Shown one piece after another: positions 35,069 to 61,598 of a DNA stretch of 64,000 bases. This DNA is from an uncultured Clostridia bacterium (lineage in GTDB: Bacteria > Bacillota > Clostridia > TANB77 > CAG-508). A program made the translations under genes and the position numbers. Every line of letters begins with the position of its first letter. Position 1 is the first letter of the stretch. Where the stretch lies: the NCBI GenBank assembly GCA_944387505.1, contig CALXFG010000003.1, positions 751-64,750 of the forward strand, given 5' to 3'. The notes below the pieces were generated by a model that made no database searches, had not been told where the DNA came from, and saw only the letters and a program-made list of their open reading frames with translations.

Positions 35069-35143
35069 AGTTACAATTCACAGTTTATATTAATATGAAT
35101 CTATATGCATTCTATAGAATATTTTTTGCTGTGAATTGTAACT
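35069..35143. repeat. Palindromic element G (15-bp perfect arms)
   Basis: AGTTACAATTCACAG (35069-35083) / CTGTGAATTGTAACT (35129-35143). Confidence 0.8.
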
Positions 35144-38625: not shown

Positions 38626-38994
38626 TTATAACTGTGAGAGTGCTTCATAGAAGCTGAAGTCACTCAGGAAGTCTCTGCTAATATCCATAGAGTTTCTGTG
38701 GTTGTCTAACCACATTCGACACTCGGGTGTGTCATAGGTAAGCCCATCAGGGTTATACTTCCCGTTGGAAGTGATAGGGGTATACCCACCTCTGTGAGCA
38801 ATTTCACTTGCTGCTGTTTCAGCCAGGCCAACAAGTTGCGTTATCGTCTCCTCAGAAGACATAATAATCAAGATATTGGCCTTGGCTTCGTGAACTTTGT
38901 TCCTTAACTCTTCGTTAAGGATATAAAGCTCTGCGTCTGACAGATTCTTCAGCCGTTCCAAATCCCTCTCATTAAAAAAAATCTTTTTTGACAT
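38626..38994 (-). CDS. Hypothetical protein (122 aa), GC-enriched orphan
   Basis: Clean ORF with clearly higher GC than its neighbours. Own terminator hairpin TAGCTACAGG/CCTGTAGCTA (38591-38616). Confidence 0.55.
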   Translation of the reverse strand: MSKKIFFNERDLERLKNLSDAELYILNEELRNKVHEAKANILIIMSSEETITQLVGLAETAASEIAHRGGYTPITSNGKYNPDGLTYDTPECRMWLDNHRNSMDISRDFLSDFSFYEALSQL

Positions 38995-39097: not shown

Positions 39098-39328
39098 GTT
39101 ATTGTTCATACATCCCACTCTAAGAGGAATGATAGGGTATCTTTTTAAAGTTCTCGGCTCCCCTCCGATTTCCGTTTAAGAAATTCTAATATTTAAATCG
39201 TAACGATACCCGGAAACAGGACCCTTTACGACTTAAATATAAGAATTTCTAAAACGACTCCGGTCGCATTCGAACATTTAAAAATATACCATATCATTCC
39301 TCTTAGAGTGGGATGTATGAACAGTAAC
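39098..39328. repeat. Long nested palindromic element A (~230 bp; 32-bp perfect terminal arms)
   Basis: Arms 39103-39134 and 39292-39323 are perfect reverse complements. The interior folds back imperfectly around 39210. Confidence 0.9.
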
Positions 39329-43117: not shown

Positions 43118-43202
43118 GGTTGCCAAAGGGGACGGGTTAAAATGGCAACTTTTTAATAAAAAATAAAAAAGTTGCCATTTTAACCCGTCCCCTTTGGCAA
43201 CC
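43118..43202. repeat. Palindromic element B (85 bp; 37-bp perfect stem, GGGGACG word)
   Basis: GGTTGCCAAAGGGGACGGGTTAAAATGGCAACTTTTT and its exact reverse complement around an A/T loop. Each arm also contains GTTGCC...GGCAAC. Confidence 0.95.
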
Positions 43203-46086: not shown

Positions 46087-46725
46087 TTGAATCCAAAGAT
46101 AAAAGAAGCATTAGAGTGGGTATATTGTATCATTATAGCAATCGTATTAGCTTTATTATTTAGATATTTTATAGGAACGCCAACCATTGTACAACAAGTA
46201 TCAATGAAGCCAACATTAGTAGAAGGACAGAGATTATGGCTAAATAGATGGTCAAGAACGACAAAAACATTACCTGAAAGAGGACAAATTATTACATTTG
46301 AGGCACCAACAGAGAAATTTTATACCAGTTCAGAAATAGATGAAAATAACCCAGTGGCAAAATATGAAAATGAACCAACCAATATATTTGGTAAATTTGT
46401 GAAATATGTATTAGAAATTGGAAAAGAAAGTTATATAAAAAGAGTGATTGCTTTACCAGGGGAACATGTAGAGATTAAAGAAGGAAAAGTGTATATAAAC
46501 GGAGAAGAACTAGATGAACCATATTTACAAGATGGTGTTGTAACAGATGTAGAAGGTCCTGGTTTCTCAGATTTTGTTGTTCCAGAAAATACAGTGTTTG
46601 CAATGGGAGATAACAGACCACATAGTACAGATTGTAGAGCATTTGGATGTATACCGTTAGAGAAAATAGAAAGTACTGTAGCGATAAGAATATGGCCATT
46701 AAATAAATGGGGACATGTAGACTAA
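46087..46725 (+). CDS. lepB: Signal peptidase I
   Basis: TTG 46087 after AAGGAGAGAG. Catalytic SMKPTL and box E GDNRPHSTDCR. Confidence 0.9.
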   Translation: MNPKIKEALEWVYCIIIAIVLALLFRYFIGTPTIVQQVSMKPTLVEGQRLWLNRWSRTTKTLPERGQIITFEAPTEKFYTSSEIDENNPVAKYENEPTNIFGKFVKYVLEIGKESYIKRVIALPGEHVEIKEGKVYINGEELDEPYLQDGVVTDVEGPGFSDFVVPENTVFAMGDNRPHSTDCRAFGCIPLEKIESTVAIRIWPLNKWGHVD

Positions 46726-46728
46726 AAG

Positions 46729-46757
46729 ATAGAGATTTTAGGTCTCTATTTTTTTTG
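46729..46757 (+). terminator. Rho-independent terminator after lepB
   Basis: ATAGAGA / TCTCTAT stem followed by a T8 run. Confidence 0.7.
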
Positions 46758-46782
46758 CATTTTAATCCATATTTTTCAAGTT

Positions 46783-47164
46783 CTGTTTTTTCAAAATGAG
46801 GGCGGGGATGTTTATATTTTTTTATGATTTTCTTGTGGTATAGGAAAAATGGCTTTTCCTATACCACAAAAAACAGCGTTGCACAGAAAAATTGCTACGC
46901 AATTTTTCGCGTCGACAAATCTTAACGCTTCTTCGAGAACTTAAATATATATAGTTAAGTTAGAAAAGTAGAGAAAAGTTCTCGCGAAGCGATATTTGTC
47001 CGTTTGCTCAATAGATGATAACTTCTAAATTTTCAATAAATGAGTCTCTCGCTGCTCGCGCTTCCTCATTTATTAAAAATTAAGAATTTATACATCTATT
47101 TCACGGCACATTCGTCAATACATAAAAAAATATAAACATCCCCGCCCTCATCTTGAAAAAACAG
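46783..47164. repeat. Long nested palindromic element C (382 bp; ~42-bp terminal arms closing four internal hairpins)
   Basis: Arms 46783-46824 / 47123-47164 (1 mismatch). Internal hairpins include 47035-47074, which carries the conserved loop TCTCTCGCTGCTCGCGCTTC. Confidence 0.9.
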
Positions 47165-47244
47165 AAAACTTAATCTCTTTTTTATTGAAAAATCAATTGT
47201 TTTAGTATATAATAATAAAGGTAAGAAAAAGGAGCGAAACATTG

Positions 47245-53992: not shown

Positions 53993-54079
53993 TCTTAAAT
54001 TGCCTCCTTTTATTAAAATTTTACGACTTTAGTATATGACTAAATAGTTTTAATGTCAATACATTTGACGAAAAATGAA

Positions 54080-54198
54080 ACGTTGGGGACGTGTCAAAAT
54101 GGACAAAAAATGGTCAAAAGGGACAGGTCTAAATTGTATGCCAAAGGGGACGTGCCTTTTTGGCAACTTTCGGAATGATTTGGTATGTCCCCAACGTA
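54080..54198. repeat. Palindromic element D (119 bp) built from GNCAAANGGGACR words
   Basis: ACGTTGGGGAC (54080-54090) / GTCCCCAACGT (54188-54198). The interior carries GTCAAAATGGACA, GTCAAAAGGGACA and GCCAAAGGGGACG. Confidence 0.85.
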
Positions 54199-54588
54199 AC
54201 TACTCAGTTGTAAAGATATTTGATATTAAACGAGTTCATGTATATTTATTTCTCACAAATTCCTCGGTTCAATACGTGCTCTAGCCTTTCTAACTATAAA
54301 AGAAACGAGCCTCTCGCTATTCCCGCTTCCTCATTTCTTTTTATATATTAGAAAAGTCATACTGACTTTCTAATATATAAACTCAATGCACACAAATTTT
54401 ACTAAAGTAAAATTTGGCGCTGAACAATGACGCGAGCTTTAAAATGTCATAAATAGAGAAAATGTTCAAAAAAGCTCGCTATTGTTCTAATCAGAAAGGC
54501 TACAAGCACTCCAATTACATTCGTCATTTGTGAGAAATAAATATACATGAACTCGTAATTAGAAATTTTATGCAACTGAATAGTTACG
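54195..54588. repeat. Long nested palindromic element E (~392 bp), homologous to element C
   Basis: About 64-bp imperfect arms: 54196-54259 pairs with 54524-54587. An internal hairpin at 54298-54341 carries the loop CCTCTCGCTATTCCCGCTTC (16/20 identical to the C loop). Confidence 0.9.
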
Positions 54589-54687
54589 CCTCAACAAGAT
54601 TTTTTAACAAATTACTTGTATAATGAAAATAATTGTGATATAAATATAAGTATAAAAATAAAGCTAAGGAAGAAAGGCGGAGTTTTT

Positions 54688-55422: not shown

Positions 55423-55621
55423 TGTCCAATTGGGGACGTTTCTGTTTGGGACATTTTTATTTAAAATGCATTTTTTAATAAAAGCAAATGTATTAAATTT
55501 TAGAATTTTTTATTTTTATTCTGCAATATTCGTCTAAAAAAATAAATAAATTTAATACATTTGCTTTAATTAAATAGATATATTATAAAATGTCCCAAAC
55601 AGAAACGTCCCCAATTGGACA
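55423..55621. repeat. Long palindromic element F (199 bp; 35-bp perfect arms with GGGGACG)
   Basis: TGTCCAATTGGGGACGTTTCTGTTTGGGACATTTT (55423-55457) and its exact reverse complement (55587-55621). Starts 1 nt after the regulator's stop codon. Confidence 0.95.
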
Positions 55622-61331: not shown

Positions 61332-61598
61332 AGCTTCGCCTCTTTTGTTAAAAATTTGCAATTATATTCTATCTTAAAAATACATAAAAAGCAATAAAGG
61401 ACACAGAAATTTTACAAAGATTCCTCCAAGTACATTCAAAATTTAATCAATATTAATATATCAACATTTTAGACATTAATTTTTTTGACTGTAAATTGTA
61501 ACGATGACTTTGGAGACGAAACAAAAAATGTATAACAATATTGAAAAAGAGAACAATTTAGAATATAATAAATAGGAAAAAATGAAAGGAAATAAAAG

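Follow-up and report, generated by a model that had tools for sequence, protein, structure and literature searches.

The defining features of bacterial MITEs are terminal inverted repeats, direct repeats that become less distinct with time, AT-rich intergenic sites, and stable stem-loops; examples include Correia/CREE in Neisseria, QMITE2 in Coxiella, and Chunjie in Geobacter (reviewed in PMC10969869). Here we analyzed element C, a hairpin-forming sequence between a signal peptidase gene and holB in 64,000 nucleotides of DNA from an uncultured Clostridia bacterium (this whole stretch is called the window, and all positions refer to it). Element C is most probably a non-autonomous transposable element, namely an old copy of a hairpin MITE superfamily with a second repeat inserted into it. 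This superfamily, which belongs to an uncultured low-GC gut Clostridia clade, is previously undescribed. Like bacterial MITEs, the family has units of ~230-250 bp with no ORF, terminal inverted repeats, and direct duplications that fade with age. Its copies are likewise numerous (truncated and partial ones included), lie in AT-rich intergenic sites, and form a very stable stem-loop of the whole unit. Unlike in bacterial MITEs, the arms are complementary over almost their full length and not just over 20-30 bp, and the best conserved part is not only the termini but the center, which is common to the subfamilies. The copies are also mostly old and vertically inherited, with no cognate IS among the sampled loci.

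The family shares further features with REPIN/REP sequences, which are also hairpin-forming intergenic repeats that are inherited vertically, kept at orthologous sites across species, slow to duplicate, and composed of halves that change in concert (PMC3116915; PMC3337134; bioRxiv 10.1101/2021.07.10.451892). However, REPINs are ~70-110 nt doublets of short REPs with a single-strand HUH enzyme, whereas the family unit is a single long hairpin flanked by 8-bp duplications. Moreover, the sampled loci contain no gene with family copies on both sides, the arrangement expected of a RAYT. Judging by what is known of the IS200/IS605 mechanism, the HUH enzyme of REPINs leaves no target duplication. The IS families with 8-bp duplications include, besides IS66, ISL3, IS6, IS256, and IS1595. 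The ends of IS66-family elements are described, in the part of PMC11946415 that cites TnCentral, as inverted repeats of 20-30 bp starting with GTAAGCG and flanked by 8-bp direct repeats. The family resembles IS66 in its 8-bp duplication and in the starts of its termini (GTAAC in the E2 subfamily, GTTAC in E1, and GTTAT in the G-type), but only 4-5 terminal bases agree, GTAAC occurs in E2 alone, and no IS66-type transposase was seen in the sampled loci. By these terminal sequences, an IS66 origin of the family may serve as a lead and not as an assignment.

The family was also compared with other hairpin systems. Like ERIC/IRU and BOX/RUP, the family consists of imperfect intergenic palindromes with variants that arise by internal insertion at fixed positions; unlike them, it has clear duplications and termini, and it has another host clade and no sequence relation to them. 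As in attC sites and in IS200/IS605 ends and PATEs, which are recognized as single-stranded hairpins (PMC7290912, PMC3597680), structure is kept above stem sequence, and unpaired or mismatched positions are conserved. In contrast to attC, the family lacks RYYYAAC...GTTRRRY core sites, cassette arrays, and intI, is ~2-4 times longer, and has termini that read GTT...AAC, the opposite of the attC R''/R' arrangement. In contrast to IS200/IS605, it is symmetric, with terminal repeats and duplications, neither of which IS200/IS605 has. Finally, element C is similar to OLE, ROOL, GOLLD, and HEARO/omega-RNA in size, multi-hairpin appearance, and covariation. Unlike these RNAs, it has no Rfam match, forms perfect DNA-like helices, and belongs to a multi-copy family with variable orientation and target duplications, while its extra hairpins are a separate mobile insertion.

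Structure and setting of element C

The initial annotation paired C with a second element of the window, element E, and its sequence statements on both all check out. The outer arms of C pair with a single mismatch over 46 nt, slightly more than the 42 nt claimed, and they do enclose four hairpins (Table 1). The inverted repeat extends to 46776/47173 if one indel is allowed. Within the species, either A or G is found at the mismatch site (46795/6), and copy L102 has perfect arms. The ends of C were set by alignment to the uninterrupted orthologous copies L042, L092, and L094, and its orientation was taken from the apical motif. The fold of positions 46781-47166 has an energy of -156.8 kcal/mol vs -69.1 +/- 5.3 kcal/mol for shuffles (z = -16.7), and z is -15.9 for the fold of E.

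The 20-nt apical loop of C (47045-47064), TCTCTCGCTGCTCGCGCTTC, is identical to its counterpart in E, CCTCTCGCTATTCCCGCTTC, at 16/20 positions, as previously noted, and ACATTCGTCA is present inside the right arm of both elements (47108-47117 and 54517-54526). The pattern CTCTCGCTNNTCNCGCTTCCTCATTT has two matches in the window (C and E) and none in 100 shuffles, and the 26-nt loop motif of C is, within the window, common to E only. Elsewhere, only ~52 bases of C and E are alignable, with 79% identity. The homology proposed for the two elements is supported by a profile of the family core, which scores C with E = 1.7e-30 (match 46996-47128) and element E with 2.4e-22.

Plus-strand genes lie downstream of both copies, as had been stated; these are holB (PF13177) for C and an OmpR-type response regulator for E. 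Because the holB promoter is located downstream of C, the element lies outside the holB transcript. Apart from this promoter, which lies outside the element, a promoter scan around C returned only one weak site in the left arm (9/12 matches), a score within shuffle expectation. A role as an intrinsic terminator was rejected, as neither strand has a T run after the hairpin.

Table 1. Coordinates of element C, its surroundings, and other family loci in the window
Feature	Positions	Strand	Remarks
Terminator-like hairpin and T run	46724..46756	+	3' of signal peptidase gene; repeat I10; upstream of C; kept in orthologous loci
Left flank 8-mer CATATTTT, putative eroded target-site duplication	46768..46775	.	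vs 47174-47181 TCTCTTTT, 5/8
Whole composite element C	46776..47173	+	C-type MITE copy of ~230 nt and nested insertion of ~170 nt
C left outer arm	46781..46826	.	terminal inverted repeat and variable G-rich stem segment; pairs with 47121-47166
Nested insertion, second repeat family F3	46831..47000	+	hairpins 46829-46873, 46886-46908, 46914-47000; ends +/- 2-3 nt
Remnant of C left internal loop, CGTTTGCTC	47001..47009	+	family motif TTTCCTCGGYT destroyed
Native inner hairpin of MITE core in C	47010..47100	+	stems 47010-47044 / 47065-47100; conserved apical loop 47045-47064
C right internal loop, TTCACGGCACATTCGTCAAT	47101..47120	+	includes ACATTCGTCA, common to E
C right outer arm	47121..47166	.	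pairs with 46781-46826, 46 nt, 98% complementary, 1 mismatch
holB promoter TTGAAA-17-TATAAT	47185..47213	+	downstream of C; 11/12 matches; kept in L042, L092, L094
Element E, E2-type, termini GTAACTACTCAG...CTGAATAGTTAC	54196..54587	+	nested module F4 in right side of inner stem
Third superfamily member, G-type	39098..39328	+	same plan; loop motifs TCTCGGCT / GCATTCGA; different apical loop
Relic of E1-type copy	35070..35142	.	both termini and one arm retained, core deleted
Relic, right half only	61434..61502	.	ATTCaAAAT to GTAAC terminus; full copy in L056 at same site

A second repeat is inserted in element C

At the SPase-holB site of sister species (L042, L092, and L094), we found an uninterrupted canonical element. 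Compared with L042 and L092, the window has the extra bases 46834-46998 (~165-170 nt). These bases are a copy of a second repeat family, F3, other copies of which (82-93% identical) occur standalone or in other hosts (L075, L068, L070, L032, L053, L089, and L010). The F3 insertion is present in the same orientation in 14/14 same-species contigs that reach the region. The "ornate" four-hairpin look of C, emphasized in the initial annotation, arises because this insertion supplies three of the hairpins, which are absent from the sister-species element. Element C is thus a canonical hairpin MITE with an inserted second repeat and not one designed structure.

The insertion lies in the left internal loop, which reads ATGATTTCCTCGGTTTG in the canonical unit and ATGATTTTC, followed by the insertion and CGTTTG, in the window. 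The CTCGG motif, present in 86/89 copies, was thereby removed from C, and GAGTC replaces the GAGCC of nearly all other copies. Contrary to the view that it is not a decaying repeat, C is therefore a decaying copy.

Element E carries another nested module than C, F4 (~54342-54487). In L010 and L070, whose arms and flanks are different, F4 occupies the identical place in the core.

Size and anatomy of the family

Collecting further copies, as the initial annotation had proposed, was done by a search with the loop motif, which yielded 87 more copies in 19 species-level Clostridia MAGs and ~44 locus groups. The family set comprises 89 exact-motif copies from these 19 MAGs and the window, in 44 locus groups. 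The canonical unit is a single hairpin of ~230-247 nt, without a conserved start codon or ORF. From the ends inward, its termini are conserved and are followed by a variable outer stem, conserved internal loops (CTCGGCT / CATTCG), an inner stem, and an apical loop that is again conserved. The spacing is fixed in nearly all copies, with CTCGG 50 nt 5' and CATTCG 37-38 nt 3' of the apical motif. Each subfamily has conserved termini, which are homologous from one subfamily to another (consensus ~GTWACWATTCA; TYAAGTTTCRG in the C-type), and the loop motifs are common to subfamilies that differ in termini and apical loops. The apical motif was exact in 6/8 copies found via a different motif. When metagenomes were scanned with the right-loop motif, only 8 copies were obtained, and every one came from a single sample.

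Orthologs are more alike than paralogs. The outer arms of paralogs are 62-80% identical, i.e., old, and only the E1 subfamily reaches 91-93%; this age counts against the MITE reading as regards current mobility. The copies are solitary and lie between housekeeping genes, mostly beside gene 5' ends in promoter-containing spacers. Divergent spacers are enriched (38% vs 18%) and convergent spacers depleted (3% vs 15%), a preference that could mark function instead of insertion bias. Two other explanations of the units were discarded. The arms are not copies of local target DNA, as arms of different copies are homologous, and a small peptide is not encoded, as ATG-like positions vary between copies.

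Target duplications and variable presence

Target-site duplications were investigated in 26 E1/E2 copies with regex-defined termini. The flanking 8-mers matched at 8/8 positions in 10/26 copies and at 7/8 in 8/26, i.e., at least 7/8 in 18/26, whereas shifted controls averaged 2.68 and reached at least 7/8 in 1/832. The duplications of C-type copies are eroded but still enriched, with at least 6/8 matches in 13/39 copies (33%) vs 6% of controls. The flanks of C itself match at 5/8 positions, those of its orthologs L042 and L092 (catattat / gatatttt) at 6/8, and those of E (TCCCCAAC / GCCTCAAC) at 6/8.

The presence of copies at a given site is variable. Filled sites have empty or reduced counterparts (L008/L080 vs L084, the L043 group vs L059, and L061 vs L100), L117 is a core-deleted copy, and L015 is a chimeric one. 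The relic at 35070-35142 corresponds to a full 235-nt copy with a perfect 8-bp duplication, ttcctata, at the same site in L007. G-type copies were also found in L047, L011, and L079, and an E2-type copy occupies the G-type site of the window in L034 and L096. For C-type copies, no exact empty site could be placed, with respect to either ends or duplications, because the flanks are too diverged. The initial annotation had set simple MITE behavior against its own reading of C, and the 8-bp duplications, variable presence, and deletion relics found here are such behavior.

Stem pairing and core inversion

In an alignment of 40 copies, 93.3% of cells were paired, and 337 cells showed double changes that keep the pairing. 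Shuffles gave 103.6 +/- 8.2 (0/500 reached 337), and slid controls gave 45-90. The earlier observation of conserved loops on differing stems that still pair therefore holds for the family. However, this covariation test cannot separate RNA constraint from DNA-level concerted evolution. Of the 3348 outer-stem pairs, 95.3% are Watson-Crick, with 36 G·T/T·G and 37 A·C/C·A mispairs, and an asymmetry of wobbles in the inner stem was traced to one position. Among the differences between orthologs, 153 are fully compensated and 74 uncompensated (26 G·T, 19 A·C, and 29 other).

The core is cleanly inverted between the arms in L085 vs L051, and orientation differs within at least 6 of ~20 multi-species loci. 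After collapsing to loci, the co-directional bias (14.9 vs 8.2) is not significant. The initial annotation had taken the covariation as a sign of selection on structure. Selection on RNA does not agree with the balance of G·U and A·C mispairs (36 vs 37), the flips of orientation, and the position of C between a terminator and the holB promoter. On the MITE reading, the covariation of the stems reflects concerted evolution of both arms of a copy as DNA, and selection on an RNA fold is not required for this. Template switching between inverted repeats is known to homogenize arms and invert the spacer (PMC8604942; see also PMC8794818). The arms of the family would likely be homogenized by template switching of this kind or by gene conversion between the inverted arms, and the same process may also invert the core in place.

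Search for a partner enzyme and known relatives

A co-occurring protein gene, which the initial annotation had suggested looking for, does not recur among the 167 neighboring proteins of the sampled loci. Their 90 clusters mirror synteny, and no recurrent neighbor (transposase, RAYT, and recombinase included) was found across non-orthologous loci. No multi-copy protein within a MAG was found in ~700 kb. Likewise, the ~760 kb of sampled loci contained no autonomous element with family termini, and pairs of termini were 235-447 bp apart. The absence of an autonomous partner in the sampled loci was counted against the MITE reading.

The Rfam scan that had been called for gave no known RNA family, as Rfam 15 had no gathering-threshold match in the whole window. 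Permissive scans of C, E, and two canonical copies produced only sub-threshold hairpins resembling miRNA precursors. A plasmid or phage origin was rejected, since blastn found no match in PLSDB or INPHARED, and the single IMG/VR pattern match was a chance one in DNA of 60% GC. The nested module was absent from IMG/VR.

Discussion

The initial annotation had left a choice between a structured RNA and a protein-recognized DNA hairpin. The second option, in the form of a protein-recognized DNA repeat, comes near the truth, whereas the RNA option is not supported. For element C as an old MITE copy, we propose that a trans-acting transposase, most likely one of the DDE type from an IS family with 8-bp duplications, made 8-bp staggered cuts and pasted copies into AT-rich intergenic spacers, mostly promoter-containing ones. 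The copies would then have been inherited vertically for a long time and would have decayed via internal deletion and nested insertion.

Between species, the core diverges at roughly half the rate of the flanks. Dead MITEs would not be expected to behave in this way, and the slow core was counted against the MITE reading.

A less probable explanation, which we consider unlikely, is that the MITE-borne core is kept by selection, and that it is recognized near promoters, whichever way it is oriented, by a protein of the host or the element that reads it as duplex DNA or as a folded single strand. REP/BIME and the long-lived REPIN populations would be comparable. Orthologs share 0.957 identity in the core, compared with 0.882 for adjacent intergenic DNA, 0.882 for the outer arms, and 0.895 for the mostly coding distal flanks; its identity is still ~0.945 without the bases used to find the copies. 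However, survivorship bias inflates this apparent conservation, because the copies were selected for an intact motif. Selection on the core would also agree with the greater similarity of orthologs than of paralogs, with loop motifs that persist in subfamilies with other termini and apical loops, and with the enrichment of copies in promoter-containing spacers. In addition, the inner stem keeps its mismatches at conserved positions, and the unpaired parts contain TTCCnC three times. A precedent is provided by REPIN populations, which persist and are inherited vertically (PMC3116915; bioRxiv 10.1101/2021.07.10.451892). On the other hand, the window loci, which are an unbiased sample, comprise 2/5 deletion relics and two interrupted copies, one of them interrupted in a conserved loop, so that single loci can be dispensed with. 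The neighborhoods of the sampled copies yielded no candidate reader protein. Equally unlikely is the stricter form of this explanation, in which the core is a functional hairpin read by a dedicated protein as folded ssDNA or RNA, selected over long periods at orthologous promoter-proximal sites, and flanked by a rapidly rewritten, perfectly paired "hypervariable" duplex. If true, this would make the functional core a new type of repeat system, domesticated or mutualistic, within uncultured gut Clostridia.

We regard it as highly unlikely that C is a structured non-coding or cis-regulatory RNA whose transcribed loops have ribosomes, mRNAs, or a protein as targets. Such an RNA would fit the strong covariation seen around unpaired motifs that are conserved, and also a position by the apical loop where a Watson-Crick pair alternates with C·A of the + strand, equivalent to U·G of the - strand. 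Some copies, such as L005, must be co-transcribed, because they end ~35 nt before a start codon. That the loops would act through UUCCUC-like sequences, which are anti-Shine-Dalgarno-like on the + strand (GAGGAA on the - strand), is just as improbable. Against an RNA, ~5600 pairs show no wobble excess on either strand when that position by the apical loop is excluded, and the helices of 45-52 bp are perfect. Species differ in core orientation at one and the same locus, and no orientation bias is left once the copies are collapsed to loci. A conserved internal promoter was not found (the best candidate in the core, TTGACG-20-TATAAA, has too long a spacer), nor was a terminator, and C is placed after a terminator and before the holB promoter. 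Rfam gave no match, and the target-site duplications account for the spread of the copies.

An invertible DNA switch, with the arms as invertase sites and the orientation of the core controlling neighboring genes, is the least probable explanation and very improbable indeed: both core orientations do occur at the same locus in different species, and copies mostly adjoin gene 5' ends, but a single orientation was found, at the assembly level, in 14/14 same-species contigs from different samples that reach C, no promoter is present in the core, no recombinase gene recurs beside the copies, the arms vary from copy to copy, and spacer inversion between long inverted repeats is expected without a dedicated enzyme (PMC8604942).

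With C read as a MITE copy, the main value of the analysis is a correction, as an RNA-like covarying structure turns out to be a transposon hairpin with a nested repeat. This is a warning for RNA discovery in AT-rich genomes, where covariation by itself is insufficient. We advise checking the strand asymmetry of wobbles, orientation, target duplications, and orthologous "before/after" sites. The analysis also adds a new MITE superfamily that comprises at least four subfamilies, together with two families of nested modules and a separate palindrome family. The family provides natural examples of spacer inversion and arm homogenization between long inverted repeats, and the slow evolution of the core and the block-wise rewriting of both arms merit follow-up. 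These repeats shape the intergenic DNA of a clade that is known from metagenomes only, and they break its short-read assemblies.

Results

Element C, located between the SPase gene and holB, probably belongs to a new superfamily of hairpin MITEs spread by a transposase; it carries a nested second repeat, and its arms probably evolve in concert as DNA. The initial annotation described this region accurately. The arms of C are 46 nt each and fall one position short of perfect complementarity, and the whole 386 nt have a folding energy of -156.8 kcal/mol compared to -69.1 ± 5.3 kcal/mol for dinucleotide shuffles (z = -16.7). Element E, upstream of the gene for an OmpR-type regulator, folds similarly (z = -15.9). 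The loop motif CTCTCGCTNNTCNCGCTTCCTCATTT, common to C and E, is present at exactly two places in the window and in none of 100 shuffles. BLAST aligned the two elements only over 52 nt (79% identity) and ACATTCGTCA.

To define the family, the pattern TCTCGCTNNTCNCGCTTCCTCA was scanned against one genome per species. The scan yielded 96 stretches, 9 of them chance matches in GC-rich genomes. The remaining 87 were found in 19 low-GC (25–32%) MAGs labeled as uncultured Clostridia, Eubacteriales or Bacillota, with 1–12 copies per MAG. The geometry of the family is rigid, with CTCGG located 50 nt 5′ and CATTCG 37–38 nt 3′ of the loop motif in nearly all copies. The canonical unit is a single long hairpin of ~230–247 nt. 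Its termini are conserved, and the middle of its ~45–55-bp outer stem varies among copies. Next come an A/T-rich proximal segment and an asymmetric internal loop that is conserved (left TTTCCTCGGCTYR, right CCACGGCACATTCGTCAAT or CAATCACATTCGWMAT), followed by an imperfect inner stem of ~35 bp and a conserved apical loop. The termini are approximately TYAAGTTTCRG in the C-type, GTTACAATTCACAG in E1 (unit of 242 nt), GTAACTATTCAGT in E2 (unit of 247 nt) and GTTATTGTTCAT in the G-type subfamily, which has a different apical loop. In all copies, the unpaired parts of the core, including the canonical left loop, contain TTCCnC(GGC) three times, always in the same direction; its opposite strand reads GnGGAA, which is Shine-Dalgarno-like. 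A 122-aa ORF without a Pfam match adjoins the G-type copy of the window, and at this site L034 and L096 hold only an E2-type copy in a 300–350-nt spacer.

The target duplications were assessed by locating the termini by pattern and comparing the 8-base flanks of the left and right ends. Among 26 E1 and E2 copies, the flanks matched at 8/8 positions in 10 and at 7/8 in 8 (e.g., ttcctata, tatttact, agcatagg, and gcattaaa), and two further copies matched with a 1-nt shift. The shifted controls gave a mean of 2.68, with at least 7/8 in 1 of 832. The duplications of C-type copies are eroded (at least 6/8 in 13 of 39 copies vs 6% of controls; 5/8 for C itself and 6/8 for its orthologues), which fits a greater age of these copies. 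The presence of the family differs between species at orthologous sites. Two E-type deletion relics were found in the window. The first retains the termini and a single arm, the second only the right half; L007 and L056, respectively, have a full copy at these sites. A core-deleted copy was found in L117. One chimeric copy combines a left end of E2 type with two right ends, of which the E1-type one is nested immediately within the E2-type one; this points to recombination between subfamilies. The initial annotation had set its structured element against MITEs with target-site duplications and variable presence, and the family displays both of these features. The defining features of prokaryotic MITEs, i.e., terminal inverted repeats, waning direct repeats, AT-rich intergenic sites and stable stem-loops, are present in it (PMC10969869).

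The superfamily was probably spread by a trans-acting transposase making 8-bp staggered cuts. C now carries the nested second repeat, and its two arms probably change together as DNA. The ~760 kb examined contained no autonomous partner. Since several other IS families besides IS66 yield 8-bp duplications, the likeness to IS66 is taken as a lead only. It consists of the 8-bp duplication and the GTAA/GTTA start, which are reminiscent of IS66-family ends (PMC11946415). A separate family of long perfect palindromes around GGGGACG motifs, with 35–40-nt arms, is unrelated to the MITE core. One of these palindromes abuts E, whose left duplication copy overlaps the palindrome end, and at the 43.1-kb site L092 carries a copy like the one at 55.4 kb.

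Positions of repeats, associated features and loci with rearranged stems or cores
Feature	Window	Other loci
SPase terminator	46724-46756	
C, left and right arms	46781-46826 / 47121-47166	
C, native hairpin	47010-47100	
TTCCnC(GGC)	47060-47068, 47101-47108	
holB promoter	47185-47213	
Extra DNA in C, BLAST extent	46834-46998	
F3	46831-47000 (approximate ends)	L075:5223-5394; L068:363-532; L070:2431-2566; L032:5920-6056; L053:4058-4176; L089:4720-4882; L010 (at 3′ end of F4)
E	54195-54590	
F4	54342-54487 (approximate)	L010:4754-4903; L070:1943-2096
G-type copy	39098-39328	
122-aa ORF	38626-38994 (minus strand)	
E-type relic, termini and one arm	35070-35142	L007 (full copy)
E-type relic, right half	61434-61502	L056 (full copy)
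Chimera		L015:4514-4767
GGGGACG palindromes	43118-43202, 54079-54197, 55423-55621	L092:2547-2759
Flipped core		L085 vs L051; L045/L047/L095 vs L005 group; L009/L048 vs L021 group; L034 vs L096; L036 vs L046/L081; L033/L058 vs L063/L100
Block replacement		L043/L093/L038 vs L085/L051; L009/L048/L021/L055/L022
Contigs ending at or inside C		L001-L004, L104, L107-L110

In three sister species with the same neighboring genes (L042, L092, and L094), the SPase-holB spacer contains a C-type unit that is not interrupted and has the outer-stem sequence of C. Compared to these, C of the window contains ~165–170 extra bases. They correspond to a separate repeat, F3, of ~165 nt, which comprises three hairpins, the first with a variable stem, and has conserved joints (TTGCACAG...GCAATTTTTCGCGTCGACAAATCTT...GAGATTTGTC). 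Elsewhere, F3 is found on its own or within other hosts at 82–93% identity. Therefore, of the four local hairpins originally ascribed to C, one is native and three are foreign. Two contigs break off inside F3, as expected of a high-copy repeat. F3 lacks a terminal inverted repeat, and two before/after comparisons revealed no target duplication and a loss of ~4–5 target bases. The insertion removed from C the CTCGG loop motif, present in 86 of 89 copies, and C carries GAGTC where nearly all other copies have GAGCC. C is thus a damaged copy, contrary to the earlier view that it is not a decaying repeat. This damaged form is fixed in the species, as all 14 same-species contigs reaching the region contain it at 99.4–100% identity and in one orientation. 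Among these contigs, which come from different samples, about half of the samples have a C/A variant at a variable apical-loop position (~47055), one sample has perfect arms owing to an A/G variant at left-arm position 46795/6, and the loop of F3 hairpin 1 (~46853) shows a 1-nt indel.

E is an E2-type copy interrupted by another module, F4, placed after CTCATTTCTTTT. F4 differs from F3 and is architecturally related to it. It occupies exactly the same core position at two unrelated loci, L010 (E2 arms) and L070 (E1 arms), which reflects either highly site-specific insertion or a composite copied as a unit. The three F4-bearing elements differ in outer arms and flanks.

Paralogues within one genome have outer arms 62–80% identical and cores 87–95% identical (E1 is the exception, at 91–93%) and, E1 excepted, are old. 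In same-orientation orthologue pairs (n = 29), the identity was 0.895 in distal flanks, 0.882 in both adjacent flanks and outer arms, and 0.957 in the core (~0.945 without ascertainment bases). When copies were retrieved by the right-loop motif instead, the exact apical motif was present in 6 of 8. The core therefore changes at about half the rate of its surroundings. Dead transposon copies would not be expected to do this, and it is the main argument for some retained function. However, 4 of the 5 superfamily loci in the window are interrupted or reduced to relics, which counts against such a function, and an exapted functional core is unlikely.

The consensus structure of 40 C-type copies comprises 65 pairs, with 93.3% of cells paired. 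Both sides were changed in 337 cells, compared to 103.6 ± 8.2 in shuffles (0 of 500 reached 337) and 45–90 in slid-partner controls. The covariation is therefore real and, like the C-E homology and the conserved loops, bears out the initial annotation. The structured RNA deduced from it is quite improbable. Watson-Crick pairs make up 95.3% of 3348 outer-stem pairs, and many copies are perfect over 45–52 bp. G·T/T·G (36) is as frequent as A·C/C·A (37), and stem differences between orthologues are fully compensated in 153 cases vs 74 uncompensated (26 G·T, 19 A·C, and 29 other mismatches). Such covariation is DNA-like, and the core is inverted between species. Only a single position, next to the apical loop, hints at a strand, being C·A on the plus strand and U·G on the minus strand. 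The Rfam scan proposed earlier, run with Rfam 15, gave no match in the whole window at gathering scores, and scanning C, E and two canonical relatives permissively gave none either. Moreover, C lies downstream of the SPase terminator and upstream of the holB promoter (TTGAAA-17-TATAAT), and thus outside both transcripts.

The core is cleanly inverted between L051 and L085, with the arms unchanged, and its orientation differs within at least 6 of ~20 multi-species loci. The arms of flipped orthologue pairs are 0.74 identical, compared to 0.88 in unflipped pairs. Template switching or gene conversion between inverted arms results in both arm homogenization and spacer inversion (PMC8604942), and can create and maintain hairpins without RNA selection (PMC8794818). 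We infer that the stems are kept paired by these processes and not by selection on an RNA fold. An invertase switch, to which core flipping could also be ascribed, is the least probable reading; same-species short-read metagenome contigs that stop at or inside C, e.g., exactly at the left-arm end (46825/6), are an artefact that assembly produces when inverted arms exceed k, and not evidence of inversion. In sister species, a central 14–20-bp block of the outer stem can be wholly different at one locus, with the partner arm changed to match, while termini, core and flanks are still ~90–95% identical.

The neighboring genes all have housekeeping functions (SPase, holB, PSP1, OmpR-type regulator, IspG, POR, Mur ligase, and PBP). 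Across 44 locus groups, the copies were distributed as 14.8 in divergent, 23.1 in co-directional and 1.2 in convergent spacers (background: 71, 273, and 60, respectively). The orientation bias among co-directional loci, collapsed to locus groups, was not significant (14.9 vs 8.2).

Overall, the initial observation is confirmed and its interpretation is partly supported. Element C and its relatives are chiefly of value as a cautionary case and for the inventory of repeats they provide for an uncultured clade.
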